From positions 11,970-75,969 of the forward strand of contig JACRHB010000220.1 of assembly GCA_016217725.1 (NCBI GenBank): DNA of 64,000 nucleotides, given 5' to 3'. The stretch's first letter is position 1. Each line of letters opens with the position of its first letter. The position numbers and the translations under genes are program-made. The stretch comes from Nitrospirota bacterium. GTDB lineage: Bacteria > Nitrospirota > Thermodesulfovibrionia > UBA6902. A model generated the notes under the pieces. That model was not told the origin of the DNA. It ran no database searches and saw nothing but the letters and a program-made list of their open reading frames with translations. Of this stretch, positions 23,960 through 47,660 are shown one piece after another.

Positions 23960-24041
23960 GAGTTTATTTTACCTTTTATTTCGTTGATTTCTACCATAAA
24001 AATCCTTATCCTTAATGAAACAGTAAATTATGGAAAGATCC

Positions 24042-25115: not shown

Positions 25116-25284
25116 ATTTCAAAAACGATTTGATATTGTGTCGAAGGCAAATGAAGCGGCTGATGCGGATTTGGAAGCTGTTGAGAGGCAAAAGAGGGTT
25201 AGCAAGGCTTTCGTCTTTTTCAGAACTTTAAACTTTTATCAATTTTAAAGTAAAATTATCGAAGACAATTTTCAAGAGGAGATT

Positions 25285-26304: not shown

Positions 26305-26711
26305 TGGCTGGGAACAGACATCAATTTATTCTTGGTTTGGTTGTTAAGAAGATGCGGGAAGAAGGGGCGGAGCTTTACGGCATTGATGGTAACTATCCAG
26401 GGCTCTTCGGCGAAAAAGTGCCATTGCCGCCTCAAATATTAAGACACCGCCCCGATGCGATAGGAATAAAAAGTAATGGGCAATTATGCATAGGGGAAGC
26501 AAAAACAGAGGGGGATATTCTCAATACAAGGACATATGAGCAGTTGCAGGACTTCACCAGTGTTGAAATAAACGGCTCAAAGTGCGAAGTATTTGTTGGC
26601 GCACCGCAATCCAGTGAAAATAATTTTGGAAAAAGTCTGGAGAAAACCGGATTGAAAGGATGTGATAATCTCCATGTACTTTATATTCCAGACGAAATAA
26701 TCAATGATTAA
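26304..26711 (+). CDS. small PD-(D/E)xK nuclease-fold-like protein, island gene 2
   Basis: 135 aa; ...HRPDAIGIKSNGQLCIGEAKTEGD gives the D...(E)xK spacing typical of restriction-endonuclease-like folds; start overlaps the stop of gene 1. Confidence 0.4.
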   Translation: MAGNRHQFILGLVVKKMREEGAELYGIDGNYPGLFGEKVPLPPQILRHRPDAIGIKSNGQLCIGEAKTEGDILNTRTYEQLQDFTSVEINGSKCEVFVGAPQSSENNFGKSLEKTGLKGCDNLHVLYIPDEIIND

Positions 26712-28134
26712 AGAGAAACAGCTTTTTGAACCAAAGACACAAGCCCTTCCACATCAAATAGAAGCTACTAATTATATTAATAATCACCAGGAGGTAGCTT
26801 TATTTGATGAGCAGGGATTGGGAAAAACAAAGATCGTCATTGATTCATTATGCTGTTCAATGAAGCACGGTGAAATTGAAGGGGTGCTTGTGGTATGTCC
26901 CATGTCTCTTATATACAATTGGGAGCAGGAGGTGCATAAACATTCTTTTCTTATTCCGGTTGTGCTTAAGGGCAGTGATAGAGAAAAAAGATATAAATTC
27001 ATGACAGGCGCAAACTTTTATATCACCAATTATGAAGCTGTTGTTGCTGAGACAAACAGAATAAAACGGTTTTGTAAGAGCCGCAAGGTTGCAATTGTGC
27101 TCGACGAATCTGCCCGCATAAAAGACCCTGCTACAAAAACCGCACAAGCGCTATTTGATTTGAGACCATTTTCAACAAAGAGAATAATCATTACCGGAAC
27201 CCCTGTTGCGAATAAGCCGATTGATCTATGGTCACAGTTTTATTTCCTTGATGGCGGGAAACTGTTCAGTGAAGACTTTAATGATTTCAAGGCAGAATTC
27301 AATGAGCGGCATACCTTATACAAGGATAATCTCGCTGAATTAAACACCATTGTTTCAGCCAACTCTCTCCGTCGCTGCAAAGACGATGTACTTGAACTTC
27401 CTGATAAGAGATTCATCAACGTATATGTCCGTCTTAAAGGGAAGCAGCTTGAACTCTACAATCAACTTCGCGAGGAATTAAAAATTGAAGTGCAGGACAT
27501 GGAGGGGAATGTTTTTGTTGATGAGGCCGAAAATATTCTCAAGAAATTACTCAGACTGACACAGATTGCAAGCAATCCTCTTTTAATTGATAAGGGGTAT
27601 GATGAGACTCCTTCCAAATTTATTATGCTTGATGACTTGCTCAACGATATTGCAGCAAGAAAGGAAAAGGCTATAATTTGGACAGGCTTTGTTGAAAATA
27701 TAATTATTTTAAAAAACAGGTTCAAACAATATAAGCCATTAATCATTCATGGTGATATTCCGGTTAAGGAACGGGCAGAAGCGGTCAAGGTCTTTCAGGA
27801 GTCAGAGAACAATATTATAATGATTGCAAATCCTTCTGCTGCACGTGAAGGGCTTACACTTACGAAGGCGAATAATGCGATTTACGTAGACAGAAATTTC
27901 AATCTTGTAGATTATTTGCAATCACAGGATAGAATACATAGAATATCTCAGACAAAAGAGTGTAATATATTCAAAATTCTTGCAAAAGATACAATTGATG
28001 AATATATTGATAGGGTCATTGATGTAAAAAAAGAAATAGCTGGTTATGTTCAAGGCGATTTAAAGAAAGTAAAAGTTGAAAGCCTTAATTTTCTTTTAAA
28101 CAAAACTGAACTCTTATGTATTCTTGGGGGGTAA
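26704..28134 (+). CDS. SNF2-family DEAD/DEAH-box helicase (compact, 476 aa), island gene 3
   Basis: Walker A DEQGLGKT, DExH VLDESARIKD, SNF2 motif TGTPVANKPIDLW, helicase-C motif VI QSQDRIHRISQ; 8-nt overlap with gene 2. Confidence 0.85.
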   Translation: MIKEKQLFEPKTQALPHQIEATNYINNHQEVALFDEQGLGKTKIVIDSLCCSMKHGEIEGVLVVCPMSLIYNWEQEVHKHSFLIPVVLKGSDREKRYKFMTGANFYITNYEAVVAETNRIKRFCKSRKVAIVLDESARIKDPATKTAQALFDLRPFSTKRIIITGTPVANKPIDLWSQFYFLDGGKLFSEDFNDFKAEFNERHTLYKDNLAELNTIVSANSLRRCKDDVLELPDKRFINVYVRLKGKQLELYNQLREELKIEVQDMEGNVFVDEAENILKKLLRLTQIASNPLLIDKGYDETPSKFIMLDDLLNDIAARKEKAIIWTGFVENIIILKNRFKQYKPLIIHGDIPVKERAEAVKVFQESENNIIMIANPSAAREGLTLTKANNAIYVDRNFNLVDYLQSQDRIHRISQTKECNIFKILAKDTIDEYIDRVIDVKKEIAGYVQGDLKKVKVESLNFLLNKTELLCILGG

Positions 28135-29170
28135 TGTGCCTGTAGAAACAATCACCGTATTAGGCAGAGATATAACTTATGAAATAAAAAATGTTGATAT
28201 ACACAACCTTGAATACTATCCGGAAAACCCTCGAATCAACTATATAATCAGCAGATATCCTCGTGGGAAAGTCACGCAGGATTTCATTGAACAAGAACTC
28301 TTAAAGTTAGATTCAACAAAGGAAAGGATAAAAGACCTCGAAGAAAATAAAGGTCTTTTAGATGAAGTCTATGTCGTTGAAAATAAAGTGGTCGAGGGAA
28401 ATACGCGGCTCTGTGCTTACAGAAGGTTGAGTCGAAAATATCCTGATGACACGCGATGGAAACGCATCAAATCCCGTATTCTTAAAGGTAAGATCAAAGA
28501 TGAAGAGCTTTTCTATATACTTGGCACTTTTCATATTAAAGGAAAGACAGAATGGGATGCATATGAAAAGGCCGCATATATACACAAAATGATCAGGATC
28601 CTCAATAAAAATCCTGAAGACATTGCAAAGCAATTAGGGAAACAGAAAAAGTCTATAGAAGCCATGCTAAGGGCATATGACGTTATGTCGAAAAAATACC
28701 TTACATCCTCTAATGAACCATCACTTGTAAACGGTGCGAGAGATGAACTTAAGAAATACAGTTACTTTGAGGCATTTTTTCTCCAAAAAGAACTGGCAAA
28801 AAAATCAGAGGATACTCCTGACTTTATCGATCAGTTTGTTGAATGGGTAAAGGAAGATAGGTTCAAGAAGGCGCAGAATGTTCGAGAGTTGCCAAAGATA
28901 TTAAGTCATAAGAAGGCGACGAAGGCTTTTTATGAAGGGGATGCTGAGGATGCATTTGATGAAGCCAAGCATATTCTTTATGAGCATAAGCCGGAGAAGG
29001 TTGACAGATTCTATAAAAAGGTAAGAGAATTTCGAGAGTTGATCCACGAGGCTGAGGCGTTTAAAATAAGAGATGAAATTGAGAGCAACAAGAATAAGAA
29101 AAATGAGTTAAGAGAGTGTTATAAAGATTTAAAGAGGTTTTGTAAGGAAGTGGGATTGGATGCTCAATAA
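28124..29170 (+). CDS. ParB/Srx-fold domain protein, paralog 2, island gene 4
   Basis: LEYYPENPRINYI and VVEGNTRLCAYRRL motifs; 11-nt overlap with the SNF2 gene. Confidence 0.55.
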   Translation: MGGNVPVETITVLGRDITYEIKNVDIHNLEYYPENPRINYIISRYPRGKVTQDFIEQELLKLDSTKERIKDLEENKGLLDEVYVVENKVVEGNTRLCAYRRLSRKYPDDTRWKRIKSRILKGKIKDEELFYILGTFHIKGKTEWDAYEKAAYIHKMIRILNKNPEDIAKQLGKQKKSIEAMLRAYDVMSKKYLTSSNEPSLVNGARDELKKYSYFEAFFLQKELAKKSEDTPDFIDQFVEWVKEDRFKKAQNVRELPKILSHKKATKAFYEGDAEDAFDEAKHILYEHKPEKVDRFYKKVREFRELIHEAEAFKIRDEIESNKNKKNELRECYKDLKRFCKEVGLDAQ

Positions 29171-30185
29171 GCCAAAGGAGAGGATCATGAAAAGAACATT
29201 TAAGGCGATTGAAATGGTACAAAATAAATGGAAGTTTTATGTGTTTAGTATAAAATCCGACTTGTTATACAAAATAGCTTATATCAGTAGGAGACACGAG
29301 AATAAGGAAGAAGGATATCAGCGAAATCTGTCAAAAAAACGCGCAAGAGAAATATATGATTATATTTTTACCTTACACGGTGTTATCCCCAATAATATTA
29401 TTCTGAACTTTGATACGAATCTAAATTATGATACAAAAAGTCAGACAATTTCCTTTAAAGATGATGAAAATATTGCGTGGATTATTGATGGTCAACATAG
29501 GCTGTATGGCTTGTCTTTAAGCAAAAAACCCATTGATGTTATGGTGGTAGCTTTTGAGAAATTAGATATACAAAATCAAGCAAAAATATTTAGGGTAATT
29601 AACTCCACCCAAAAAGGTGTTAATGCGTCACTTATCTATGATCTTATTGACTTGGTTAAAGATGCGAGTTTTCTTGAGGAACGTGCTCATGAACTTGCAA
29701 AAAAACTCAATAGCGACCCGGAGTCACCATGGTATATGCAAATAAAAATGTTGGGGATAGGGGCTGGCCTGATTTCTCAAAGCGCATTTGTAAATAACTT
29801 AATACTTTTGTTGGATGAAGAAAGACGGGCACCATTGCAGGTATATACAGAAGAAGAGCAATATGGCATATTAAAAAATTATTTCAATGCAGTCAAATAC
29901 TCATTCCCAAATGACTGGGGACAGGCGAATTCCTTACTCACTAAGACAATGGGATTTTACTCATTAATAGCCGTACTGCCAACTGTTTTACAAATGTGCT
30001 CAGGCAACTTTACGACTGATTCGGTAATTAAAATACTTGAACCAATAAAGGATTATAATTTTGCAAGTAGTGGACCATTGAAAGGCGTTTCCGGCAAGGC
30101 TGGGGTTGAGAGAATCACATCTGAAATAAACTCTCTTTTAACAGCAACAAGGAAATCAAAGAAGACGCCGATAATAAAGCTTTAA
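29160..30185 (+). CDS. DGQHR-domain protein (DndB/DpdB-like ParB-superfamily), island gene 5
   Basis: GYQRNLSKKRAREIYDYI ... WIIDGQHRLYGL: the diagnostic DGQHR motif, plus an FxxxN motif (FRVINSTQ); 11-nt overlap with gene 4. Confidence 0.8.
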   Translation: MLNKPKERIMKRTFKAIEMVQNKWKFYVFSIKSDLLYKIAYISRRHENKEEGYQRNLSKKRAREIYDYIFTLHGVIPNNIILNFDTNLNYDTKSQTISFKDDENIAWIIDGQHRLYGLSLSKKPIDVMVVAFEKLDIQNQAKIFRVINSTQKGVNASLIYDLIDLVKDASFLEERAHELAKKLNSDPESPWYMQIKMLGIGAGLISQSAFVNNLILLLDEERRAPLQVYTEEEQYGILKNYFNAVKYSFPNDWGQANSLLTKTMGFYSLIAVLPTVLQMCSGNFTTDSVIKILEPIKDYNFASSGPLKGVSGKAGVERITSEINSLLTATRKSKKTPIIKL

Positions 30186-30187
30186 TC

Positions 30188-31021
30188 ATGTTCCATAAAA
30201 TCGTTGCTAATTTTAGAGAAGTTAGTGGAGTGTGTGAAGGGTTTGTAAAAGATGCTGTCAGAACAAATCCTGCATTACCGTTATCTTTAATTACACATAA
30301 ATTCCAACCGTTTTATTCTAATGAGTTGAAAAATAAATTTTTCAAAGAAGTTAACCTTTATTTAGACAAGGCCATGTATCAATACATAATAAGTCGTTCC
30401 CTGTTGCATGAAGGTATTTTTTCTTGGGGAGCAGTAACACAATATTATGCCAATTTCTTTGCAATTTCTGGATTAATAAGGCTACATGAAAATGGATTTT
30501 CAAGGATAGGCAATTTAGATGTAGAGGTTCAACAGCAATCTGATATATATGAAATTAGAAAAACTAAAACAGAGGGACTACACAGAATTGTTTGGTCTAA
30601 ATTTTATGCCCTATACAAAGGGTTTGATTATAAGCCTCAGATCTTTTATACAGTCTATTCACCAATTAATAATAACAATTATTTTGAATCAGACAGGCGC
30701 AATGACATTAACTACAATCCAGCATCAGGATATCAAGAAATTTATCAAACGTATAGCACGGTGAAGTCTTTAATAAAAGAGCGCACAAAAGATGCCTATT
30801 CTGCGGACAAGATTGAATTAGCAAATGAATGGATTGATTCAGATACAAGAACTCAATACAGAATCAGATTGCTCGCAAATATTATTTCTGAAATAGACGC
30901 ACTTAGTCATTTCCCTACTCACGTCAAGGAACGATTAATAAATAGAGAGAAATTTATTCAACGATATGAAACGGACAAAAGATATCGGGTTCGTTTCTTA
31001 GGCTGGTTAACAGGTGAATAG
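30188..31021 (+). CDS. hypothetical protein (277 aa), island gene 6
   Basis: No recognisable motif; AT-rich codon usage as in the rest of the operon; 3-nt gap from gene 5 and 8-nt overlap with gene 7. Confidence 0.5.
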   Translation: MFHKIVANFREVSGVCEGFVKDAVRTNPALPLSLITHKFQPFYSNELKNKFFKEVNLYLDKAMYQYIISRSLLHEGIFSWGAVTQYYANFFAISGLIRLHENGFSRIGNLDVEVQQQSDIYEIRKTKTEGLHRIVWSKFYALYKGFDYKPQIFYTVYSPINNNNYFESDRRNDINYNPASGYQEIYQTYSTVKSLIKERTKDAYSADKIELANEWIDSDTRTQYRIRLLANIISEIDALSHFPTHVKERLINREKFIQRYETDKRYRVRFLGWLTGE

Positions 31022-32396
31022 AATGAATATACTTCTTGTTGAACCAGGTTACAAAAATAAATATCCACCTCTTGGTCTTATGAAAATATCTGCATTCCAC
31101 AAACAGCGCGGTGATAACGTACGTTTTATAAAGGGACTAAACAAAGAGGTCAAAGCACAAATGTGGGATAGAATTTATATAACCACCCTGTTTAGTTTTT
31201 ATTGGAATGAAACTATTAATACTATCAGATACTATGAATACAGCATACAAGACCCTCAGAATCTTTTTATAGGCGGGCCGATGGCAACGCTTATGTCAGA
31301 CGAAATAGAGAAAGAAACAGGATATAGGCCGGTAAAGGGATTACTGAATGAAAAAAGAAAATTGAGGTTGCCGAATGATTATAAAGTTGACAGCCTGGTT
31401 CCCGACTACAGCATCCTTGAACAAATAGAGTACAAGTATCCGGCATCAAACGCCTATTTTGCTCATGCAACAAGAGGCTGTATAAGAAAATGCCCGTTCT
31501 GCGCTGTTCCCAAAATTGAACCTTTTTATACAGATTATATCCCCTTAAAGAAACAGATAATAATGATTAATGAAAAATATGGAGAAAAGAAAGACCTTCT
31601 ATTGCTGGATAACAATGTCCTTGCATCTTCACAATTTGACAAAATAATTGATGAAATCAAAGAAGCGGGGTTTTATAGGGGAGCTAAATTAAATAACAGG
31701 AACAGATACGTAGACTTTAATCAGGGAATAGATCTGAGACTCCTTACGAAAGAGAAAATGAGGCTGTTGGCTGAACTTTCCATAAAGCCTTTGCGAATTG
31801 CCTTTGACCACATTAAATTGGAGAAGGAATACGTTAAAAGAGTAGAGTGGGCTTCTGAATTCGGAATAAACAATTTATCAAATTATATCCTATATAACTT
31901 TCATGACACTCCAGAAGATTTTTATAGACGGTTAGAAATAAACATTGAACTGAATGAAAGATTAGGGACTAAAATATTTTCATTTCCGATGAAATATATC
32001 CCCATAGATAATAGGGATCGAAAGCATAAAGGCAAGTATTGGAATCTTCGATACTTGAGAGGTATTCAATGTATTTTACAAGCCACACACGGAGTCGTAA
32101 GTCCCCAAAGAGAATTTTTTCATGCAGCATTCGGGAGAAACGTCGAAGCTTTCAAAAAGCTTCTTTTAATGCCTGATAACTATATTATCTTTCGCGAAAA
32201 TCACAAGAATAATGGTACTGCTGATTGGGCTAAGATATACGATTCCTTATCTAATGAGCAACAAAAGGAATTTCACGACATAGTTTTTGAGAATCAATTC
32301 AATAATGGATTGCTGTCGAAATATTCAAAGATAAATATTCTCTTAGCTCACTATAAGGTGCCGAAACAACAAGTTTCTCTAAAAGAGCTTTCTTAG
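31014..32396 (+). CDS. radical SAM enzyme with an N-terminal B12-binding-like (Rossmann) domain, island gene 7
   Basis: Canonical CxxxCxxC (ATRGCIRKCPFCAV); the N-terminus MNILLVEPGYKNKYPPLGLMKISAFHKQRGDNVRFI resembles the N-terminal domain of class-B radical SAM enzymes; ~34% GC. Confidence 0.7.
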   Translation: MNRMNILLVEPGYKNKYPPLGLMKISAFHKQRGDNVRFIKGLNKEVKAQMWDRIYITTLFSFYWNETINTIRYYEYSIQDPQNLFIGGPMATLMSDEIEKETGYRPVKGLLNEKRKLRLPNDYKVDSLVPDYSILEQIEYKYPASNAYFAHATRGCIRKCPFCAVPKIEPFYTDYIPLKKQIIMINEKYGEKKDLLLLDNNVLASSQFDKIIDEIKEAGFYRGAKLNNRNRYVDFNQGIDLRLLTKEKMRLLAELSIKPLRIAFDHIKLEKEYVKRVEWASEFGINNLSNYILYNFHDTPEDFYRRLEINIELNERLGTKIFSFPMKYIPIDNRDRKHKGKYWNLRYLRGIQCILQATHGVVSPQREFFHAAFGRNVEAFKKLLLMPDNYIIFRENHKNNGTADWAKIYDSLSNEQQKEFHDIVFENQFNNGLLSKYSKINILLAHYKVPKQQVSLKELS

Positions 32397-32604
32397 TGTA
32401 GAAAGATTTCCAACCTGACAACTATGGCAAGCCATAACACAGAATACAATCCACCCGGAGAAATAATGCAGGAGGAAAATCTTGACTAGGCAGGTAACCC
32501 CGAACAGATACGCCACCCTTATTGAACGTCTTGCGGACATTATCCATTTCGCATGGACAACCGCGCCCGCTTCTTGATATTTTCGTCGTCAAATAGCATG
32601 ATAT

Positions 32605-34451: not shown

Positions 34452-35111
34452 TTAGATACCCAGATTGACGTACATGACGTTTTTTGGGCCTTCCGCCTGT
34501 CCCGTCAATTTGCGGTATGCATAAGCGTAAGCCGTCAGTGAGGTCGGGATCGTTGCGAACAGTCCGACAAGCAGGAACAGGGCGCCTGCCAGATTGATGA
34601 GTCCCAGCAGCCCCCCGAGTAAAAACAAATCCCATTTTGCGCCTTCAGTCGCTTTGCCGCTCGCCTTAAGCGCCTCAAGCGGGCCGAGGCCTTTATCGAC
34701 GATGAAGTAAGAGTAAAGACTGAACTTAACTCCCCATATGACGCCGGGGACAATGAATAGGATAAATCCCCCGAGCATAATAAGGGCATAAACCAAAGAG
34801 CTTGCGATAAACGTTAGTAGAAGGTTGAAAGAGGACAGGAGGTCGTCAAGCTGTCCCTTTATGCCGTCGCAAAACTTAAGGCCGATCTTGATAAGGCCCA
34901 TCTGCACGACAAAGCCCAGGACCCAGCTTGCAAAATACAGCGTAACACTTATAAAGGGGAGCGCTTCACGCACGAAGTTCGCTATTATCGCGGGAAGGTT
35001 CTCAATGAGAAAGGCGACGGTAAGAAGCCCGAGGAAGAACCCGATATGGTCCTTCATTATTGCCCATCCGAACTTTACGGCCTCGCCGATTGAAAGCTTT
35101 TTCCCGTCCAT
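34452..35111 (-). CDS. integral membrane protein (6 TM, DUF975-like)
   Basis: 219 aa; six hydrophobic helices; no catalytic motif. Confidence 0.55.
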   Translation of the reverse strand: MDGKKLSIGEAVKFGWAIMKDHIGFFLGLLTVAFLIENLPAIIANFVREALPFISVTLYFASWVLGFVVQMGLIKIGLKFCDGIKGQLDDLLSSFNLLLTFIASSLVYALIMLGGFILFIVPGVIWGVKFSLYSYFIVDKGLGPLEALKASGKATEGAKWDLFLLGGLLGLINLAGALFLLVGLFATIPTSLTAYAYAYRKLTGQAEGPKNVMYVNLGI

Positions 35112-35204: not shown

Positions 35205-35260
35205 TAGCGTTGGGGTTTATCCCCAACGAAAAAATCGCCCCCAATAAATGAGGGCGCTAC
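35205..35260. repeat. GTAGCG...CGCTAC twin-hairpin element, copy 3, flanked by (AAAAGTT)n words
   Basis: gtagcgttggggtttatccccaacgaaaaaatcgcccccaataaatgagggcgctac, preceded by aaaagttaaaagttaaaagttgaaagt. Confidence 0.55.
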
Positions 35261-35388: not shown

Positions 35389-36873
35389 TCAGCCTATTCC
35401 TTCGTACTTCTTCATCCTCCAGTATTCCGCATTGAGGGTCTCCACGATATAGTCAACCCTGCGCGTTCTTATCAGCTTTCCGAGCGCGTCAAGAAAGACC
35501 TTCGGGTGTCTGAAGAGTATGGTGAACAGTATGGAGTAGAAGCTTATGTTGGTCTTCTGTGTGAAATAATTCTTCACAAAGAAGGCGTTCTGCAATTTTC
35601 TTCGGATGTCCCTGAGCTCCTCTTTCTTGAACGTTATCGCCATGAGGGGAAGCTCGGGCTGTCTGTGCGCCCATATTTCGGAGAACGGCAGATTGGGATC
35701 CAGCCAGCCGTTTTTAATAGCCATGTCATAAATGTCGGTTCCGGGATAGGGCGTCAGGAAATAAAAGGCGGTATAGTCCGCCTGGATATCTTTTGCCACC
35801 TGGAAGCTCTGCTCTATATCGTCTCTGGTTTCTTCAGGGTTTCCGATAATAAAGGTTGCCAGGGTCCTGATGTCGAGGTCCTTGCAGAGTTTGAAGGAAT
35901 GTCTTATCTGCGCGGTCCTGTCTCCGGCGCCTCCTTTACCGAGCACCCTGAGGATCTTTTCGGAGCCGCTTTCAACGCCGAAATCAAGCTGCACGAGACC
36001 GCTGTCTTTCATCATTTTCATCAAACCCATGTCCGTCTGGTCCACCCTGGACTGGCAGCCCCACTTGATGTTCAGGTTTCTACGCTTTAATTCCTCGCAA
36101 TATTCTTTCACCCATTTGGGACTCAGCGTAAAGGTGTCGTCGCAGTAATATATTCCCTTTATGTCGTAATTTTTATAGAGATATTCTATTTCATCAACTA
36201 CGTTCTTCACCGAGCGTCTTCTTGTTTTTCTGCCGAAGATGTTATGGCTGCCGCAATAGATGCATTTGAAAGGGCAGCCCCTGCTTGTAACAATGGTGGT
36301 CTGGTTCTTGGTTGCGTAGCCTCTTATTATTCCGGGCGGCTTGAGGTACGGCTTCATGTCGATAAGGTGCCGCGCAGGGAAAGGGATGGTATCCAGGTCT
36401 TGTATCATTTCGCGCCTGCCGTTATCTACGATGCCGACGTTGTCGCGGTACATGACGCCTTTGACGCCTGCAAGGCTTTGGTTGTTTCCCAGCTTCTCGC
36501 ATACCTCGACAATTGTGTCTTCGCCTTCGCCGACCACTATAAAATCAACGCCGAACTCTTCCATGGTCTCTTTCGGCTTTACGGTCGTATGAACTCCGCC
36601 GGAGCAGAATATTTTGCCGGGCAATTCCTTTTTCAGGTTTTGCATCAGATGCAGCGCCCTCTGGTATCCTACCGTCAGGAAGCTGAGGCCTATCAAGTCA
36701 GGGTTGAAATCCTTTATCTCATTCAGCATGCTTGCCTGATATTCGGGGTCTGAATCATAAATCTGAACGGCGTGTCCCGCCTTTTCAAGGACTGCGGCGA
36801 TATACATCAGTCCCAACGGCGGCACAACGTTGTTGCCGTCTAACACTTGAGCATTAACCAATGTTACTCTCAT
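35389..36873 (-). CDS. B12-binding domain radical SAM protein (class B)
   Basis: N-terminal B12-binding Rossmann fold (VTLVNAQ...VVPPLGLMYIAAVLEKAGHAVQIYD) and CxxxCxxC (SRGCPFKCIYCGS). Confidence 0.85.
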   Translation of the reverse strand: MRVTLVNAQVLDGNNVVPPLGLMYIAAVLEKAGHAVQIYDSDPEYQASMLNEIKDFNPDLIGLSFLTVGYQRALHLMQNLKKELPGKIFCSGGVHTTVKPKETMEEFGVDFIVVGEGEDTIVEVCEKLGNNQSLAGVKGVMYRDNVGIVDNGRREMIQDLDTIPFPARHLIDMKPYLKPPGIIRGYATKNQTTIVTSRGCPFKCIYCGSHNIFGRKTRRRSVKNVVDEIEYLYKNYDIKGIYYCDDTFTLSPKWVKEYCEELKRRNLNIKWGCQSRVDQTDMGLMKMMKDSGLVQLDFGVESGSEKILRVLGKGGAGDRTAQIRHSFKLCKDLDIRTLATFIIGNPEETRDDIEQSFQVAKDIQADYTAFYFLTPYPGTDIYDMAIKNGWLDPNLPFSEIWAHRQPELPLMAITFKKEELRDIRRKLQNAFFVKNYFTQKTNISFYSILFTILFRHPKVFLDALGKLIRTRRVDYIVETLNAEYWRMKKYEGIG

Positions 36874-36904: not shown

Positions 36905-39313
36905 TTAACCGCAGGCGCAGCACCCGCATTCCACCTTAGGTTTTGAGCCTTTCATGGTTACTGAATAAAACTGTATAAACTGAACTTTCTTATAGAGATA
37001 ATTCTTCGTCAATTGGACGTCGGGGAAGCCTGCGTTTTCAGCGGCGTCTTTGAACCTCTTATCCGTGAGGGCTCCCGACAGGCAGGCGTTCCACAGCTCT
37101 TTGTCCCTTTTCAGATATCCGGGGACGGGCTTGTCCGAGACAATATCCGAGATGATAAATCTGCCGCCGGGCTTTAAAATCCTGTAGATCTCATCAAGAA
37201 CCTTTGTCTTGTCTTCCGTAAGGTTGATGACGCAATTGGAGATGACGAGGTCGACCGTATTGCTCTCAACCGGCAGCTCCATTATGTTCCCGCTTTTGAA
37301 TTCGACGACGTTGTAACCCAGAACCTTTGCGACTTTCTCAGCGCTTACCGTCGCCTTTCCCACCATTTCATCGGTCATGTCTATCCCGATTACTTTACCT
37401 TTAGGCCCCAGCTTTTTTGCGGCTATGAAGCAGTCTATGCCTCCGCCCGCGCCCAAATCCACGATAGTCTCTCCTTCTTTTATATCCGCAAGGGCGGCGG
37501 GATTTCCGCAGCCGTAAGACACGTCAAGGACTTCGTTCGGAATATGCTCCAGGTCTTTCGGGCTGTACCCGGTAGGGCAGTAATAATCGGCAACCGGCAT
37601 ATTGGCGGCCTTTGAAAATTTTTTCTTCACGGTCTTTGTAACGTGGCCTTTTATCTCGGGCTTGCATACTTCCTCGTCGTCTTCAACGTCTACAGACAGG
37701 ACGCAGGAGCAGTGGTAGCATCCGACCTCGAATTTCTTATCGAGCGGCTTGATCCCCGCGCCGAGATGCGACGGCAGCTTTGAGTCCATTGCGTTATAGA
37801 CAAGCGGCGCAGAGTATCCTTTACCGTCTTGTGCCGGAACCCCTTCTGAGGCCAGCTCCCAGATTATATCTTCAAACAGCGCCTTGTATGTCAAACAATA
37901 AGGGTCCCGCGCGGTTACGGAGCCTTTGCCGGTGTCAACCTCGCTTGCGTAATAACTGTGCGAGGTGCAGCCTCCCCCGCAAAAGAACTCAAGATAGCAA
38001 TCCCTGCATGCCGGTTTGTTGTGCACGCTGTTGGCCCTGCCCCTTGCCATGACCTTTGAATTCAGCCAGATGTCCTTCAGGGATTTCTTTCTTACCGAAC
38101 CGGCGTCAAAATAAGGGTCGCCGTTCAAGGATGCGCACGGATAAACATGGCCATCCGAGTTTACGCAGACTTTTTCAAAGCAGTTATTGCAAAGGTCGTT
38201 CTTCCGGCCTCTTTTTGTGCGCACGCGCACTTTCAGGGATTCTATATTATCGAGGATGAGATCCTGCTCCTTGTATGACTTTTTAAGGTTTTTCATGGCA
38301 AGGGCGATGCGCTCCGAAGGCACGAATAATTCATTAACGTTATTTGCGCCCCGGCCCTTTGCGTGCATCCAGAGGATGTTATGCTCTTTAATTCCCAGCT
38401 TTGATAAAAACCGGGAAGTCTTTAATATCTCTTTCTCGTTATATTTATTGATCGCCGTTGAGATGATAGGGGTTATTCCGATGCCGACAAGTTTTTTAAT
38501 ACCGTTCACGGCGGCGTCAAAGCTGCCTTTGCCGCGCAGCTTGTCATGGATCCCGGCATTCGGGCCTTCCAGGCTTACCTGGAGGAGGAGTTTCGGACCC
38601 ATCACCTTTTTCAACTCGGCAATCCTCCTGTCGTCAAAGAGGGTGGCGTTTGTGAGGACGATGAGCTCGCGCTTCTTTATTTTTGTAATATATTTTATGA
38701 GCTCAAATATCCCTTCTTTAATAAACGGCTCCCCCCCCGTAATATAAAACCGTTTAACGCCGAGCTTTATCGCTTCATCTACGACGCCTTTGATCTCTTC
38801 CGTAGTTAATTCCTTTTTCAGGCTGCTCCCTGCGCTGACAAGACAGTGCTTGCACCTGAGATTGCAGGCGAGGGTGTAGTATATCCACAACTCGTCCAAT
38901 TTATAAGGCGCGATCGCATTGCTTCTGCCGGGATATTCAGGTCGTTCGAGCTTTTTATTGGATACGAACTCAAGCAGTCCGGCGGCGCTGAGAAAATCGG
39001 CGACCTCTTTTCCGGCCTGTGCGGTGTCCGGGACGTTATATTTTTTACGGACGGCTTCCTGTATCTCTGAAACCGTGTGTCTGCCGTCACACAGCTTGAT
39101 GATCTCCGCCCCCGTATTATTCACGCTGATCCAGTTGGGCGCCTTGGGATCAATGAAAAGGGCTATCCCGTCTCTTTGTTTTTTAACGTATTCAGGAGCG
39201 TACAGGACGTCGTCGGGACGGAATTCCTTGAGCTCGGGATTTGTGACCCTCCAGTAATCCAGACTGTATTTTTTTATCCGATCTTCTCTTGTATCGCAGC
39301 AGCCTTGCGCCAT
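36905..39313 (-). CDS. fusion protein: PqqD-like RRE domain, radical SAM/SPASM domain and a C-terminal class I SAM-dependent (ArsM-like) methyltransferase
   Basis: 802 aa; N-terminus matches the PqqD pattern (RPDDVLYAPEYV...DGIALFIDPKAPNWISVNNTGAEIIKLCDGRHTVSEIQEAV); radical SAM CNLRCKHC; SPASM CRDCYLEFFCGGGC; MT motif I VLDVSYGCGNP...IVDLGAGGGIDCF; Cys-rich C-terminus CGCCACG. Confidence 0.8.
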   Translation of the reverse strand: MAQGCCDTREDRIKKYSLDYWRVTNPELKEFRPDDVLYAPEYVKKQRDGIALFIDPKAPNWISVNNTGAEIIKLCDGRHTVSEIQEAVRKKYNVPDTAQAGKEVADFLSAAGLLEFVSNKKLERPEYPGRSNAIAPYKLDELWIYYTLACNLRCKHCLVSAGSSLKKELTTEEIKGVVDEAIKLGVKRFYITGGEPFIKEGIFELIKYITKIKKRELIVLTNATLFDDRRIAELKKVMGPKLLLQVSLEGPNAGIHDKLRGKGSFDAAVNGIKKLVGIGITPIISTAINKYNEKEILKTSRFLSKLGIKEHNILWMHAKGRGANNVNELFVPSERIALAMKNLKKSYKEQDLILDNIESLKVRVRTKRGRKNDLCNNCFEKVCVNSDGHVYPCASLNGDPYFDAGSVRKKSLKDIWLNSKVMARGRANSVHNKPACRDCYLEFFCGGGCTSHSYYASEVDTGKGSVTARDPYCLTYKALFEDIIWELASEGVPAQDGKGYSAPLVYNAMDSKLPSHLGAGIKPLDKKFEVGCYHCSCVLSVDVEDDEEVCKPEIKGHVTKTVKKKFSKAANMPVADYYCPTGYSPKDLEHIPNEVLDVSYGCGNPAALADIKEGETIVDLGAGGGIDCFIAAKKLGPKGKVIGIDMTDEMVGKATVSAEKVAKVLGYNVVEFKSGNIMELPVESNTVDLVISNCVINLTEDKTKVLDEIYRILKPGGRFIISDIVSDKPVPGYLKRDKELWNACLSGALTDKRFKDAAENAGFPDVQLTKNYLYKKVQFIQFYSVTMKGSKPKVECGCCACG

Positions 39314-39625
39314 TTGCTGAAAAAACCTTTTATAGTAAGATTAAATTAATTTAAGAGTTACCGCCGCCTTATGTCAAGCATTTTAGAATCCATTGCCTCG
39401 ATTCCCTGAATGAGAACGGGAATGTTGATGGTTAATTCAAAGCGTCATTTTACTTTGTGTTTTATACGGAAAATCATCCGAAAAACTTGAGTAAAGCAAC
39501 TATGAATGAAGGATTTGAAAAAACCGGAACATATAAAGCGTCACGTTTAATTATAAACATTTAACCATAAATTAACAACAGTGAATTTGCTCGTATCCCT
39601 TCAGTGGAGCGTAGGGTGTTTAATT

Positions 39626-39731
39626 CCCCTCTTTGACAAAGAGGGGTTAGGGGAGATTTTTAAATAATTTAATCTAAAAATCCCCCTACATCCCCAAATC
39701 CCCCTACATCCCCCTTTTCCAAAGGGGGATT
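39626..39731. repeat. CCCCTC/GAGGGG hairpin-cluster repeat, copy 2
   Basis: cccctctttgacaaagaggggttaggggagatttttaaat...aaaaatccccctacatccccaaatccccctacatcccccttttccaaagggggatt. Confidence 0.7.
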
Positions 39732-39837
39732 AATTTCTTCCAGTCTAATATAGGGTAACCACCACTCTTCACTGAGTTATCTTTGTTCGGCAAGCGGACT
39801 TATGGCTTTTGTTATGTTTCTTTTGTAATAATATTGA

Positions 39838-40692
39838 ATGATTGAGTCAAAGGTCATGAAAAAATACGACGAAGGATTAGGCACGGTTTATGAGAGGTTT
39901 ATGCTTAATGATTATTTCGAGCGCTTAATGAATTCCCACGACATAAAAAACATTCTTGAAGTTCCCTTTTACGGCATGACGGGTTTGACGGGCATCAACA
40001 GTGTCTATTTTGCCGGGAAGGGTTGCAGCATAGTATTAGTGGATACAAAAAAAGAAAACGTCTCGGAAGCGGAGAAGCTTTTGGGAGAGCTGCCTATCAA
40101 AGGGAAGTATGATGTTTTACTGCATGAAGAGCTTTCAAAGCTGCCTTTCGGCGACGACAGTTTTGATCTTGTATGGAACTTTGCTGCAATCTGGCATGTG
40201 AAGGACGCCGATCTATTACTGAAAGAGATGGCAAGGGTTTCATCCAATCTCTTATTGATCTTTATTCCAAATAAAAAACAAATAGGATATACTTTAAGGA
40301 AATATCTTATCGACAGGAAATTCTTTGATACGGTTGACGAATCGTGGATCAACCTTGATCGAATTACCGCTCATCTGAAGAAGCAGGGGATGAAGATAGT
40401 CGAAGAGGGGCTGATAGACATCCCTTTTTGGCCGGATACCGCGATCCCCGTTAAAAATATTTTTAAAAGGAATATTAAGAAAAGCACTGAATCTGACGAT
40501 AATAAGTCTACTGAAACAAAAAAGATATTTGACGGATTCTGGAATTGGGATATAATGAGCTATTATATGGGAAACAACCCCCGTCTGAAAGATAAGATGG
40601 AGAAATTGTCTTTTCTCGAAAAGATGCCGCTGCCTAAGAAAGTAAAGACTTTTTGGGCCCATCACTTGTACATTTTATGTTCAAAGCAATGA
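39838..40692 (+). CDS. class I SAM-dependent methyltransferase (Methyltransf_11/25-like)
   Basis: ...SIVLVDTKKENVSEAEKLL... and ...LPFGDDSFDLVWNFAAIWHV... pattern (motifs I-III); 284 aa. Confidence 0.55.
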   Translation: MIESKVMKKYDEGLGTVYERFMLNDYFERLMNSHDIKNILEVPFYGMTGLTGINSVYFAGKGCSIVLVDTKKENVSEAEKLLGELPIKGKYDVLLHEELSKLPFGDDSFDLVWNFAAIWHVKDADLLLKEMARVSSNLLLIFIPNKKQIGYTLRKYLIDRKFFDTVDESWINLDRITAHLKKQGMKIVEEGLIDIPFWPDTAIPVKNIFKRNIKKSTESDDNKSTETKKIFDGFWNWDIMSYYMGNNPRLKDKMEKLSFLEKMPLPKKVKTFWAHHLYILCSKQ

Positions 40693-40704: not shown

Positions 40705-41526
40705 ATGTCGGACCATACCAACCATGAGCATGATCACCATCATGACCACCACCAGGAACACGAGCATCACCATGAGCATGAGCACCAGCACGATCATCAT
40801 CATGACCATGATCATAAACCCGTAAAGGTTAAATTCAGAAGCTTCAAGATGGACAGGGCTTTTGCCTTTGACCCTAAGAAGGGCGAGAAGGGAATAATAA
40901 CCTATACTATAACGGAGCCTGCGAGGATAAGCATAAAGGTAATTAAAAAAGGGACGAGAGAGCTGTACCTTTCGACTATATTAAACTGGGAAATGCGCGA
41001 TGCGGGGACGCATACCGAGTACTGGGACGGTAAGGATTACAGCGGTAATATCATTGAAGACCTGTCTTCGGTTTTAATGGTGATGGAAGGAGAGCCGATG
41101 TCTACGTTCAAACCCGGCGCTTATTCCGTCGAAGGCCTGTCGGACGAAGAGATCATACACGGCCATAAATGGGGACATCCTCATAATTACTATCAGGAAG
41201 GCACAAATGTAATACCGGTGATCTCGATAACTTCCGTCAAAGACGGAGACGTTCTTTCAGGTATTGTGAAAGTTGAATCAAGGCTTGAAACGAGCGAAAG
41301 AGGCTACGGTGAAAAAGTCGGCTACGGCGTCAGGTACTATTTAAATAATATTCTTGTGACCGAAGAATTTTATGACTCAAAGAGCGACGGTAAATTTTCG
41401 TATGACATCGATACGACCGCCTTCCCCGACGGGGAATATATGCTGTACGTAGGGATGTGCGATCATCATCAGCACACAACCTCAAGGGGCTGCAAGGTTA
41501 AGATAAACAACAATTCCGGGAATTGA
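40705..41526 (+). CDS. His-rich (N-terminal HDHHHDHH..HEHEH..) Ig-like/FlgD-like beta-sandwich protein
   Basis: The N-terminal 37 aa are >60% His/Asp/Glu; the rest is paralogous to 42027..42737 (FDPKKGEKGIITYTITEPARISIKV / FDPALGKPATISYKLTKAGTIRLRI; YWDGKDYSGNIIED / QWDGRDASGNIIDN). Confidence 0.6.
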   Translation: MSDHTNHEHDHHHDHHQEHEHHHEHEHQHDHHHDHDHKPVKVKFRSFKMDRAFAFDPKKGEKGIITYTITEPARISIKVIKKGTRELYLSTILNWEMRDAGTHTEYWDGKDYSGNIIEDLSSVLMVMEGEPMSTFKPGAYSVEGLSDEEIIHGHKWGHPHNYYQEGTNVIPVISITSVKDGDVLSGIVKVESRLETSERGYGEKVGYGVRYYLNNILVTEEFYDSKSDGKFSYDIDTTAFPDGEYMLYVGMCDHHQHTTSRGCKVKINNNSGN

Positions 41527-42026: not shown

Positions 42027-42737
42027 ATGAGCATAGATTCAAAAGAAAAAAATGAAGGGACGAATAAGCTGCATAAGATAAAGATAAATACGCCGGATAC
42101 GGGATATGAGCCTTTCCCGGTATATATAATCAACAGGTCTACATATGAAGCGCTGAATTTCGATCCGGCGCTCGGCAAGCCTGCGACCATCTCGTATAAG
42201 CTGACTAAGGCCGGCACGATACGACTGAGAATTGCAAGAAGGGATAACCCCGGGCTGATACTCTTAACCCTTCTGGACTGGACCGAACAGCCGTTCGGTG
42301 AACATAAAGTCCAATGGGACGGCCGTGACGCGTCGGGGAATATCATCGACAACAAAAAAATATTGATACACTTTGACGCCAAAGACCAGGCCTTAGGCGG
42401 GAAACATCGGGAGCATGACAAACTCAACTGCGGTGATCCGAAGCTTATTATCAAGACAAATCCGGAGACGCTCCGGAACATTAAAGGTAATTTAGAGCTC
42501 AGGGCTTCTTTTTCCGACGGACCGGACCGGATAAAATGGAGCTCCGGCTGCGAGGTCAAATATTTTATTGATTACGGTCTGATTAAAAAGGAAGTCTTTC
42601 AGAAAGTTCAAAACGAGTTCTCTCTTGTAATAGACACTTCAAAGTTAAGCGCCGGCGAGCATCTCATCACTGTTAATATCAGCGACATGAACGATCACGT
42701 GGGAACCGCCGGTTTAAGAATTACCGTCGCCGGTTAA
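42027..42737 (+). CDS. Ig-like/FlgD-like beta-sandwich protein, paralog of 40705..41526, lacking the His-rich N-terminus
   Basis: Shared blocks as listed for 40705..41526. Confidence 0.6.
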   Translation: MSIDSKEKNEGTNKLHKIKINTPDTGYEPFPVYIINRSTYEALNFDPALGKPATISYKLTKAGTIRLRIARRDNPGLILLTLLDWTEQPFGEHKVQWDGRDASGNIIDNKKILIHFDAKDQALGGKHREHDKLNCGDPKLIIKTNPETLRNIKGNLELRASFSDGPDRIKWSSGCEVKYFIDYGLIKKEVFQKVQNEFSLVIDTSKLSAGEHLITVNISDMNDHVGTAGLRITVAG

Positions 42738-46889: not shown

Positions 46890-47557
46890 TCGAAGGCATA
46901 GAAAAAAGAAAGAGCATCAGGGCCTTCAAGCCTGATCCGGTGCCGAGGAAAGCCCTTGAAAAAGTCTTGCAAGCCGCTGTTGCCGCGCCTTCCAAAGGCA
47001 ATTCGCAGATATGGGAGTTCGTCGCCATTACCGGTAATGAGCTGAAAGATATCAAGGTGATGCTCGGGGAGCTGCTTAAAACCGACTTTATCCCTTTAAT
47101 GAAGCTAACGGATGAAGAAGCGCCAAGCCCCGCCCTTGAAAAGGCAAAGATCAGGAGCAGCCGGAATAAAGAAGAGATGTCAAAGATATTAAATCCGATG
47201 GGCCTTGATTTTGATGACTTTATGCTTGAAGGGACTTTCAGATTCTTCGATGCCCCCGCAGCCGTTATGGTTTTCATAGAGGATATTTATTTGAAAAACC
47301 TTCCCCATCTTTTAAGTGTCGGGGCGGCGGTCCAAAATATGCTGTTGTCCGCGCAGACGCTCGGGTTAGGCACGTGCTGGATAGGAGGCGTATGGAGATA
47401 TACAAAGCAGATAAGAAAGATCCTTGGAATACCTGATAACAAGATGCTGGTCTCATCGGTAGCCATAGGATATCCTGATAACGACTCTCCGATAAACAAA
47501 TATAAATCAGGCAGGGACTCTATCGACGATTTGGTTCAATGGAAGGGATTTGAATAA
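46880..47557 (+). CDS. nitroreductase-family (FMN-dependent) oxidoreductase
   Basis: N-terminal RKSIRAFKPDPVP...L..AAVAAPSKGNSQIWEFV and C-terminal CWIGG nitroreductase signatures. Confidence 0.85.
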   Translation: MDIIEGIEKRKSIRAFKPDPVPRKALEKVLQAAVAAPSKGNSQIWEFVAITGNELKDIKVMLGELLKTDFIPLMKLTDEEAPSPALEKAKIRSSRNKEEMSKILNPMGLDFDDFMLEGTFRFFDAPAAVMVFIEDIYLKNLPHLLSVGAAVQNMLLSAQTLGLGTCWIGGVWRYTKQIRKILGIPDNKMLVSSVAIGYPDNDSPINKYKSGRDSIDDLVQWKGFE

Positions 47558-47660
47558 ATCCCCCTACATCCCCCTTTTTCAAAGGGGGACCTTCCCCTCT
47601 AACAAGAGGGGTTAGGGGTGTGTTCCCCTCTTTTGCAAAGAGGGGTGAGGGGAGATTTTC
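47556..47660. repeat. CCCCTC/GAGGGG hairpin-cluster repeat, copy 3 (starts inside the nitroreductase stop codon)
   Basis: aaatccccctacatccccctttttcaaagggggaccttcccctctaacaagaggggttaggggtgtgttcccctcttttgcaaagaggggtgaggggagattttc. Confidence 0.7.

Follow-up and report, generated by a model that had tools for sequence, protein, structure and literature searches.

A 64,000-nucleotide stretch of contig JACRHB010000220.1 (positions 11,970 to 75,969 of the forward strand; hereafter the window), from the Nitrospirota bacterium assembly GCA_016217725.1, encodes on its minus strand an 802-residue protein (36905..39313; an intact open reading frame (ORF) with an ATG start). As delineated from its translation, Pfam and NCBIfam profiles, an AlphaFold2 model and Foldseek searches, this protein combines in a single polypeptide, from the N- to the C-terminus, a Cys motif, an RRE or PqqD-like domain, a radical S-adenosylmethionine (SAM) core, a SPASM region, a linker, an ArsM-type methyltransferase and a Cys-rich tail. 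Based on its sequence and on the genomic context of its relatives, we tentatively propose that this fusion is a bifunctional enzyme of organoarsenical biosynthesis in which the radical SAM half would substitute for ArsS; the likelihood of this proposal we would place a little short of even.

The C-terminal domain (residues 532-795; 36929..37720, minus strand like all the parts of the fusion) is, judged by its sequence, a genuine ArsM-type SAM methyltransferase. Among NCBIfam models the full-length protein scores highest with PRK11873, an arsenite methyltransferase subfamily (248.9 bits, residues 573-776), Pfam places Methyltransf_31 at residues 611-758 (114 bits), and the last 270 residues match the PDB sequences of CrArsM and CmArsM with E-values of 1e-34 to 1e-32. 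The AlphaFold2 model, which was built from a 66-sequence alignment (predicted local distance difference test (pLDDT) 85.1, predicted template modeling score 0.77), retrieves the same enzymes through Foldseek, namely CmArsM (35% identity, root-mean-square deviation (rmsd) 2.4-2.7 Å), CrArsM and human AS3MT (33% identity), and comparisons with 4fr0, 6cx6 and 5evj (35-37% identity, rmsd 1.9-2.7 Å, 221-237 columns) indicate a class I SAM-methyltransferase fold superimposable on ArsM. The domain has in common with CmArsM, CrArsM and AS3MT (33-37% identity) this fold, the N-terminal ArsM subdomain and four cysteines; unlike stand-alone ArsM, the window protein is devoid of the ArsM C-terminal domain, which is kept in the anammox and Desulfobulbaceae types of the family, and has an extra cysteine, C628. 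The cysteines of the YGCG (C602), NCV (C694) and CLxGA (C744, as CLSGA) motifs align residue by residue with CmArsM and CrArsM, and are present in 70-71 of the 71 aligned near-full-length members in which Cys conservation was counted; C579, the fourth cysteine of ArsM, has been retained by two of the family's three clades and is replaced by Asn in the Desulfobulbaceae type. The As(III)-binding cysteines of CmArsM are Cys44, Cys72, Cys174 and Cys224. Beyond these positions, the linker C537 (family motif HxNCVLS), which lies with C535 in an HCSC motif of the window protein, is invariant, the family-specific C628 in motif I is found in 70 of the 71 members, and the terminal CC pair occurs in all three clades.

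The N-terminal half shows the architecture of RRE-bearing radical SAM enzymes. Its RRE/PqqD-like domain (residues 36-113; 38975..39208) is recognized by the Pfam PqqD hidden Markov model over residues 54-109 (41.4 bits, cutoff 23.4), is modeled at residues 43-113 as three strands followed by helix-strand-helix-helix with pLDDT above 90, and aligns with the corresponding parts of SkfB, CteB and SuiB. The radical SAM core (residues 145-303; 38405..38881; Pfam Radical_SAM, 95.9 bits) contains the motif C150-x3-C154-x2-C157 and GGE at 193-195, and the SPASM auxiliary-cluster region (residues 375-473; 37895..38191; Pfam SPASM, 40.4 bits at residues 375-440) contributes nine cysteines. The N-terminal 520 residues match the PDB sequences of SkfB (from residue 50, its RRE included), CteB and PqqE, and Foldseek recovers SkfB, CteB (482 aligned columns, template modeling score 0.70 on the target) and SuiB, with CteB and SuiB aligning along the whole length including the RRE. 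Both termini are Cys-containing: the first 30 residues bear a GCC motif (Cys5, Cys6; 39224..39313), and the protein ends in ECGCCACG (36905..36928, with the stop codon). Their low pLDDT, below 50 in the C-terminal tail, suggests that the two segments are probably flexible. The initial annotation had read an RRE, a radical SAM/SPASM and an ArsM-like methyltransferase domain from the sequence; Pfam, NCBIfam, PDB sequence matches and the structural model bear these calls out, including the match of the N-terminal region to the PqqD model that it had set as a test, and all the motifs it quoted (CNLRCKHC, CNNCFEKVCVNSDGHVYPC, CRDCYLEFFCGGGC, YGCGNP, DLGAGGGIDCF and the tail ECGCCACG) are found in the translation.

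The pattern of conservation distinguishes the parts of the protein. The CX3CX2C cysteines C150, C154 and C157 are invariant (71 of 71 members), as are T192, G193, G194 and E195 of the GGE SAM-binding motif in the 66-sequence alignment used for motifs other than cysteines, which argues for a catalytic role of the N-terminal half. In the RRE, variation between clades is absent or almost absent at D55, P59, N60 and W61, with an invariant P-x-W in the first strands embedded in a nearly invariant PNW. Only the Thermodesulfovibrionia-type clade, in 26 of its 26 members, has all nine SPASM cysteines: they are partly lost in the anammox group, mostly gone from the consensus of the Elusimicrobia/Omnitrophica type, and all lost in the Desulfobulbaceae type. 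The N-terminal Cys5 and Cys6 occur in 25-26 of the 26 Thermodesulfovibrionia-type members and are absent from the other clades. Selection thus acts on the radical SAM core, on the RRE-like domain and on the predicted arsenic-binding site, but not on the auxiliary clusters. Most of the family can do without these clusters, which is easier to reconcile with radical addition to arsenic than with thioether cross-linking.

The fusion belongs to a widespread, abundant and uncurated family for which no published study was found. NCBI lists the exact protein, which derives from a Nitrospirae metagenome-assembled genome (MAG), under the name 'methyltransferase domain-containing protein', and more than 120 clusters at 67-86% identity derive nearly all from Nitrospirae/Thermodesulfovibrionia MAGs. 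At least 579 loci encode relatives in a scan with one genome per species, and the best 80 of these fall into three groups: (1) Thermodesulfovibrionia proteins of about 802 residues with 73-89% identity to the window protein; (2) proteins of about 850 residues with 36-44% identity from Scalindua and other anammox bacteria, Gemmatimonadota, Vicinamibacterales, some Thermodesulfobacteriota and one archaeon; and (3) proteins of 1020-1125 residues with 29-33% identity from Desulfobulbaceae, Desulfocapsa and Desulfurivibrio, which carry an additional C-terminal Cys-rich DUF5714 domain (210 bits; L053-L077) and include those of two cultured strains, Desulfurivibrio dismutans AMeS2 (L060) and Hydrosulfovibrio ferrireducens CB1MN (L069). 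Complete Thermodesulfovibrionia genomes such as CP070788.1 are among the carriers of the fusion. The second group is very large, and a search seeded with a Deltaproteobacteria member extends it to Elusimicrobia, Omnitrophica, Nitrospiria, Nitrospinae, Wallbacteria and Latescibacteria. In an exhaustive search of 1.84 billion representatives the full architecture accounts for roughly 50-60 clusters at 50% identity. The initial annotation had recommended a database search for the same three-domain fusion; the fusion is found widely, it reaches the cutoff of no NCBIfam model, the source names of its members are all generic, and the literature searched contains no paper on a radical SAM/ArsM fusion and no mention of DUF5714. 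Three variants accompany the canonical form: one with the methyltransferase placed before the radical SAM and SPASM domains (P0135), stand-alone RRE-radical SAM-SPASM proteins detected in the representative search, and a sister family in which TusA replaces ArsM (P0145, P0156). The occurrence of the same modules in reverse order and as separate proteins supports a functional link between radical SAM and ArsM.

Among other multi-domain proteins with ArsM-like domains (P0170, P0175 and P0197) are a CMD/AhpD domain combined with two ArsM-like domains (P0170), two tandem ArsM-like domains, and two ArsM-like domains joined to an FGE-sulfatase domain of the EgtB/SenA type; the last of these hints at further metalloid or chalcogen chemistry.

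The principal ground for assigning an ArsS-like role to the radical SAM half is the company kept by more distant members of the family. In one locus (L044) the fusion stands between a TIGR04282-family transferase and a patatin-like lipase followed by a TIGR04283-family transferase, and in another (L050) it is followed by a gene in which TIGR04283 and TIGR04282 are themselves fused; in these two loci the TIGR04282 scores are 188.8 and 192.2 bits (cutoff 134) and the TIGR04283 scores 234.7 and 221.9 bits (cutoff 182). In L033 only a TIGR04282-type gene follows the fusion, as identified by tblastn and by its clustering with the one of L044; by tblastn alone, L057 has relatives of both transferases and L046 a weak TIGR04283-like match. 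A tight co-directional operon in Elusimicrobia (L079) comprises PHO4/PiT, the fusion, the membrane glycosyltransferase MptA_B/GT87, GT2, DUF2064, DUF547, a VTT/DedA protein, Pyr_redox_2, AhpC and patatin, where the GT2 is a TIGR04283 (230.4 bits) and the DUF2064 a TIGR04282 (208.1 bits) member, both above cutoff. An equally tight operon in Omnitrophica (L080) runs MptA_B, GT2, GT2-DUF2064, fusion, VTT, Pyr_redox_2, DUF547, GH1, DsrE and PHO4; the accessory sets of L080, L081 and L082 were identified by tblastn or precomputed Pfam matches only, and beyond L079 and L080 such precomputed matches indicate partial accessory sets in two loci and none in two more. Scalindua operons combine the fusion with PiT, GT2, DUF3179, an MptA_B-like membrane protein, an AhpD-like protein and DUF547, and several Desulfobulbaceae-type loci have VTT directly after it. 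Over 84 sequences (83 loci and the window), the recurrent partners are PiT (15), VTT (10), MptA_B (9), DUF3179 (9), DUF547 (7), DUF2064 (7), Pyr_redox (6) and TIGR04283-like GT2 (6, a count that includes the window's weak generic match under the TIGR04283 cutoff).

A control from the opposite direction, a metagenome scan with a four-sequence alignment of the TIGR04283-like transferase followed by annotation of the longer loci, found the same accessory genes around ArsM and ArsS encoded by separate genes. One locus (L111) has the order ArsM-type methyltransferase, ArsS, PiT, a Pyr_redox-VTT fusion, DUF547, GT2 and DUF2064; two others (L144, L161) have an ArsM-type gene and a radical SAM gene of ArsS size beside accessory partners seen in L111; and in L133 and L146 ArsS accompanies GT2 and DUF2064 (and VTT in L133), with no ArsM detected there. 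The ArsS genes of L111, L144, L133 and L146 score 443-458 bits on TIGR04167 (cutoff 300). In yet another locus (L112) a stand-alone 509-residue homologue of the N-terminal half of the fusion adjoins VTT, GT2 and DUF2064. One cassette thus accommodates either the fusion (or its radical SAM half) or the ArsM + ArsS pair, a case of non-orthologous displacement, and of the three products the initial annotation had entertained it is the organo-metalloid that this context supports; for a metallophore we found nothing in support. The parallel with the arsenosugar pathway, in which ArsS (TIGR04167) transfers a 5'-deoxyadenosyl group onto dimethylarsenite, extends to the combination of an ArsM-type methyltransferase with a radical SAM enzyme and, in distant fusions, to the accessory cassette of PiT, TIGR04282, TIGR04283, DUF547, VTT and Pyr_redox_2. 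The differences are that the fusion is one polypeptide, that its radical SAM half belongs to the RRE + SPASM lineage with SkfB, CteB and MftC as closest relatives, and that the window clade has no glycosyltransferases and only one fixed partner, a B12-dependent type of radical SAM protein described below.

The same scan brought up two other associations of these transferases. Ten loci (L087, L088, L090, L097, L104, L113, L124, L130, L143 and L145) share a different fixed cassette of identical gene order, with a KamA-like radical SAM enzyme (TIGR00238, 298.8 bits, above cutoff), a dCTP-deaminase-like protein (PRK07559, 504.6 bits) and a 136-residue membrane protein; TIGR04283 and TIGR04282 are both present in eight of the ten, GT2 only in L145, and neither was detected in L124. 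Homologues of the B12-radical SAM protein stand beside TIGR04283 genes in L116 and L118; these belong to a different subfamily with a PhpK-like best match, are convergently oriented, and were set aside.

Several observations weigh against the organoarsenical proposal. The PRK11873 score falls marginally under the curated cutoff of 263, with profile positions 38-236 of 272 covered, and the 25 best NCBIfam matches of the fusion, which reach down to 86.6 bits, do not include the ArsS model TIGR04167 (cutoff 300). No classical ars gene (ArsR, ArsC, Acr3/ArsB) occurs among 88 neighboring proteins. The glycosyltransferase cassette does not occur within 8 kb on either side of the fusion in the window or in 30 close relatives (PiT is present in three), so the argument from context rests on proteins that are 29-44% identical to that of the window; the transfer of function to the window clade from the cassette-embedded members, at 36-44% identity, is what we infer, along with arsenic as the substrate, the type of radical chemistry and the role of the B12 enzyme. 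The role of TIGR04282 and TIGR04283 in arsenosugar synthesis is itself an NCBI assignment by inference and not by experiment, and as the transferase pair also stands beside KamA-like enzymes in about ten loci and beside the TusA fusion, the pair alone is no proof of arsenic. Lastly, the window clade retains the full set of SPASM cysteines, like peptide maturases, and the RRE is conserved throughout the family, which an organoarsenical model does not explain. RRE domains normally bind a peptide.

These last features would be expected of a maturase of ribosomally synthesized and post-translationally modified peptides (RiPPs) or of proteins, in which the RRE would recruit a remotely encoded peptide, the radical SAM/SPASM part would cross-link it or modify it by other radical chemistry, the ArsM-like domain would methylate it, for instance on Cys thiols, and the neighboring B12 enzyme would C-methylate it. 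The RRE fold is confidently modeled, passes the PqqD cutoff and is kept in all clades; the closest solved structures of the N-terminal half are the RRE-bearing maturases SkfB, CteB and SuiB; and the B12 neighbor matches the C-methylase-type models ApyD and TIGR03975. In architecture and fold, the first 500 residues agree with SkfB, CteB, SuiB, AlbA and MftC, with RRE, radical SAM TIM-barrel and, in the window clade, a full SPASM. Unlike those maturases, however, the fusion has no precursor gene, carries an attached ArsM domain and belongs to a family in most of which the auxiliary clusters are dispensable. Further, StsB, WgkB, MftC and AlbA-type models are among the best radical SAM-type NCBIfam matches, together with NirJ2 and AhbD, but all are far under their cutoffs (StsB 143.3 against 625, MftC 127.3 against 265, AlbA 94.3 against 850 and the anaerobic sulfatase maturase model anSME 89.3 against 349), and the fusion reaches no NCBIfam model at cutoff. 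The RRE persists where the SPASM cysteines have been mostly (Elusimicrobia/Omnitrophica type) or fully (Desulfobulbaceae type) lost, the methyltransferase retains the specific arsenic-binding cysteines of ArsM, and the cassettes around family members are of a sugar or lipid type rather than RiPP clusters.

The search for a precursor bears on the same question. We collected ORFs of 15-110 residues lying outside large genes from 5 kb upstream to 6 kb downstream of the fusion and clustered them across about 75 loci: no conserved short ORF emerged, in agreement with the initial annotation, which had noted no evident precursor gene. The recurrent short-ORF families were a His-rich 40-residue membrane peptide, which belongs to an RNase H synteny block in Desulfobulbaceae, and conserved non-coding DNA, and both were rejected as precursors. 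In the gap upstream of the fusion (39314-39837), where only one 11-codon ORF and a hairpin repeat had been noted, the repeat is indeed present; the ORF count is not upheld, as the gap holds six ORFs of 20-35 codons, none of which is conserved in related loci. No leader protease or exporter is consistently associated with the loci; genes for a site-2 protease-type M50 peptidase and Lon recur convergently in about eight close loci, which we read as local synteny. The RiPP product once suggested for this locus is weakened by these results and by the SPASM losses, and we consider a peptide or protein maturase unlikely.

The repeat in the upstream gap belongs to a dispersed intergenic element, similar to repetitive extragenic palindromes, found at 39626-39730 and 47556-47660. 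An 18-nucleotide unit, AAATCCCCCTACATCCCC, forms a tandem pair in the gap, and a single further copy lies at 47556; chance alone would give 0.02 exact copies, against the three observed. The same G/C-rich hairpins flank both sites, CCCCTCTTTG/CAAAGAGGGG and CCCCCTTTT/AAAGGGGG, but the modules that contain them are in swapped order.

Another possible function in arsenic metabolism would be that of a self-contained, detoxifying As/Sb methyltransferase for strict anaerobes. ArsM alone would then act chemically on the metalloid, and the Fe-S-rich radical SAM/SPASM half, instead of creating a C-As bond, would regenerate thiols or supply low-potential electrons from within the protein, or would be a demethylase or C-As lyase. 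In anaerobes, fusions of ArsM with redox domains have been encountered repeatedly: those with AhpD and with DUF2284 have names in NCBIfam, the CMD/AhpD protein P0170 with its two methyltransferase domains is of this kind, and the Desulfobulbaceae type adds the Cys-rich DUF5714. Moreover, thioredoxin-like or disulfide reductase genes are frequent neighbors, and many members stand alone without a cassette (L078, L083 and most Desulfobulbaceae loci). A domain dedicated purely to electron transfer would not, however, need the invariant GGE and CX3CX2C motifs, and the auxiliary clusters, which would carry the electrons, are precisely what gets lost; the conserved B12-radical SAM partner and the ArsS-type cassette point instead to biosynthesis. 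Accordingly weighed, a purely detoxifying enzyme seems to us quite improbable.

The heteroatom handled by the family could also be other than arsenic, with Se, Te, Sb or a sulfur species on the ArsM-like domain and a C-Se or C-S product. The sister family with TusA is of particular relevance here. Its members, of about 650 residues, combine PqqD, radical SAM, SPASM and TusA, occur in Chloroflexia and other lineages, and have the ArsM fusions as nearest relatives after their own kind (34-40% identity). In three loci (L164, L165 and L166; proteins P0391, P0406 and P0397) the TusA fusion is followed by TusA and DsrE and, further along, by DUF2064, GT2, a second small radical SAM/SPASM gene and MptA_B/GT87, in varying order and on the opposite strand in L165; a DoxD-like gene is present in two of the loci and patatin lies nearby in one. 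This family, which has apparently yet to be characterized, looks like the equivalent of the arsenic cassette for sulfur relay. As one radical SAM lineage is thus fused to either an arsenic-handling or a sulfur-relay domain amid the same glycosyltransferase set, it would act on the heteroatom that its partner presents, and the element may not be arsenic in every case. In the same vein, DsrE occurs in the Omnitrophica fusion cassette, NCBIfam includes ArsM relatives that are selenoprotein families of unassigned substrate, and the transporter of PiT type is also similar to CysP, a sulfate permease (73.7 bits). For the ArsM fusions themselves, though, the four-Cys pattern and the fold match characterized As(III) methyltransferases at 35% identity and the separate-gene cassettes use ArsM with ArsS, so that a different heteroatom strikes us as very improbable.

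In the window and its close relatives the fusion has a single fixed partner. The second gene of the operon, 31 nucleotides after the fusion (35389..36873, minus strand), encodes a 494-residue cobalamin-binding (class B) radical SAM protein with B12-binding (PF02310, 88.3 bits) and Radical_SAM (PF04055, 77.6 bits) domains. A homologue with 77-94% identity lies directly 3' of the fusion on the same strand, at 31-210 nucleotides, in 27 of 30 close loci, and the remaining three end or break just after the fusion. Although this protein has its B12-binding domain and radical SAM core in common with BchE, HpnJ, ApyD and PhpK, it is far under the cutoff of every named family (best NCBIfam matches BchE 207.6 bits against a cutoff of 481, HpnJ 196.5 and ApyD 170.4), and it constitutes an unassigned subfamily that has so far been seen only beside the fusion in Thermodesulfovibrionia. 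A promoter-like site (TTGACA-18-TAAATT, 39348..39377, minus strand), 35-64 nucleotides upstream of the ATG of the fusion, and a terminator-like hairpin with T-run (35236..35256, minus strand), about 130 nucleotides past the stop codon of the B12-radical SAM gene, suggest a two-gene transcript; both are weak matches from a consensus scan, and such sites are no more frequent in the region than in shuffled sequence.

The initial annotation had viewed the B12-radical SAM protein, a separate methyltransferase and a downstream metal-transport locus as a compact three-neighbor cassette. The identities of the two enzymes hold, with Methyltransf_11 as the Pfam family of the second (39838..40692, plus strand), but across the 30 close loci only the B12-radical SAM gene is conserved. 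The Methyltransf_11 gene, the His-rich/Ig proteins and the CbiM and CbiQ genes of a CbiMNQO transporter adjoin the fusion in the window only; together they make up a separate, divergently transcribed unit, and they were rejected as members of the cassette. Within that unit, two paralogous proteins with weak Ig-like (Big_7/FlgD_ig) matches are encoded at 40705-41526 and 42027-42737, between the Methyltransf_11 gene and CbiM-CbiQ; the former opens with about 37 residues that are almost all His, Asp or Glu (MSDHTNHEHDHHHDHHQEHEHHHEHEHQHDHHHDHDHK), and the pair may be Ni/Co-binding proteins tied to the energy-coupling factor-type Co/Ni transporter. The other recurrent neighbors in the close loci are housekeeping genes, namely a sigma-54 activator, G6PD/6PGD, CobA/HemD, Lon, the M50 peptidase and a ThiL-like protein, and in three loci of the window clade (L002, L004 and L013) a PhoU_div protein and a PiT-family transporter follow the pair of fusion and B12 enzyme. 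Sigma-54 control was considered and rejected: the activator is divergent upstream of the fusion in many relatives, but no -24/-12 promoter lies upstream of the fusion in any locus, and the activator probably serves another operon. A search for riboswitches and other RNAs gave no Rfam match at E up to 1 between 34000 and 43200, the 524-nucleotide upstream gap included.

Just downstream of the B12-radical SAM gene, a DUF975-like membrane protein (34452-35111, minus strand) is weakly similar to a membrane protein of about 200 residues encoded 10-200 nucleotides upstream of the fusion in six Desulfocapsa-type loci (L070-L076; phmmer E 2e-6 to 4e-4 in a set of 979 proteins), and was not found in the remaining loci from Thermodesulfovibrionia; the similarity may reflect either a recurrent association or a compositional artefact of transmembrane segments. 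Farther away, a stretch of low G+C content (24000-32400; 35-41% against about 48% elsewhere in the window) holds an SNF2-type helicase (26704..28134; ZorD/DrmD-like matches far under cutoffs), a DpdB-like DGQHR-domain protein (29160..30185; TIGR03187, 181 bits, above cutoff) and several ORFs without a family match, and looks like an acquired defense or DNA-modification island.

Returning to the fusion as a candidate organoarsenical synthase, a three-step mechanism can be envisaged. From homology and the conserved residues, the ArsM domain would hold As(III) on C602, C694 and C744, with C579, and methylate it with SAM. The radical SAM domain would then reductively cleave a second SAM and join a carbon radical, most likely 5'-deoxyadenosyl, to the methylated trivalent arsenic to create a further C-As bond, a step modeled on the cassette displacement and the precedent of ArsS and ArsL. 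These are the only radical SAM enzymes known to form carbon-arsenic bonds, with ArsS appending 5'-deoxyadenosine to arsenic, and the C-terminal CCXXC tail of ArsL binds As(III) (bioRxiv 10.64898/2026.04.29.721666). By fusing the two activities, the protein would hand the toxic and oxygen-labile methylarsenite straight from one active site to the other, with the flexible Cys-rich N- and C-terminal tails as candidate arsenic shuttles. In the third step, which is suggested by operon structure only, the co-transcribed cobalamin radical SAM enzyme would tailor the product by methylation or rearrangement, and would thereby replace the glycosyltransferase set of other lineages. The RRE may dock a carrier segment, a partner or a peptide. 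The arsinothricin pathway of ArsL and ArsM offers an analogy to such a scheme: a radical SAM enzyme forms the C-As bond on Cys-bound As(III), ArsM methylates before or after, and the arsenic-binding Cys-rich terminal tail of ArsL recalls the GCC start and CGCCACG end of the fusion. ArsL differs in being B12-binding-like, without SPASM, and in using a 3-amino-3-carboxypropyl radical; the radical SAM half of the fusion does not match the ArsL model, and the B12 neighbor does so weakly (60 bits, cutoff 450).

A broader generalization, which we regard as rather doubtful, would make the RRE-radical SAM(-SPASM) unit a general former of carbon-heteroatom bonds acting on an atom presented by its fused carrier, be it As(III) on the ArsM triad or the persulfide of TusA. 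Together with the shared DUF2064, GT2 and GT-C genes, and patatin, it could then give rise to new arsenic or sulfur glycolipid-like metabolites in anaerobes, and the Thermodesulfovibrionia version with its cobalamin radical SAM enzyme to a new type of organoarsenical. This would represent a third independent recruitment of radical SAM enzymes for C-As chemistry, after ArsS and ArsL, with the RRE in a non-peptide or carrier-docking role.

How most natural organoarsenicals are made, arsenolipids and arsenobetaine among them, is poorly understood, as is the arsenic metabolism of strict anaerobes in general. The family described here is abundant in lineages of groundwater, subsurface and sediment, including Thermodesulfovibrionia, anammox bacteria, Elusimicrobia, Omnitrophica and sulfur disproportionators. 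It is surprising to see ArsM linked to yet a third lineage of radical SAM enzymes, and one that still has its RRE; the function proposed here is directly testable. Should the fusion prove to be a peptide maturase with an arsenic-binding methyltransferase, it would be equally unusual. If instead it is an ArsS-independent former of C-As bonds, it would provide a single-polypeptide system for the hand-off of a toxic intermediate from a methyltransferase to a radical SAM site and the first RRE domain retained in a non-RiPP setting, and the arsM-like genes of metagenomes, all of which are now counted as markers of methylation and detoxification, would need to be read anew.

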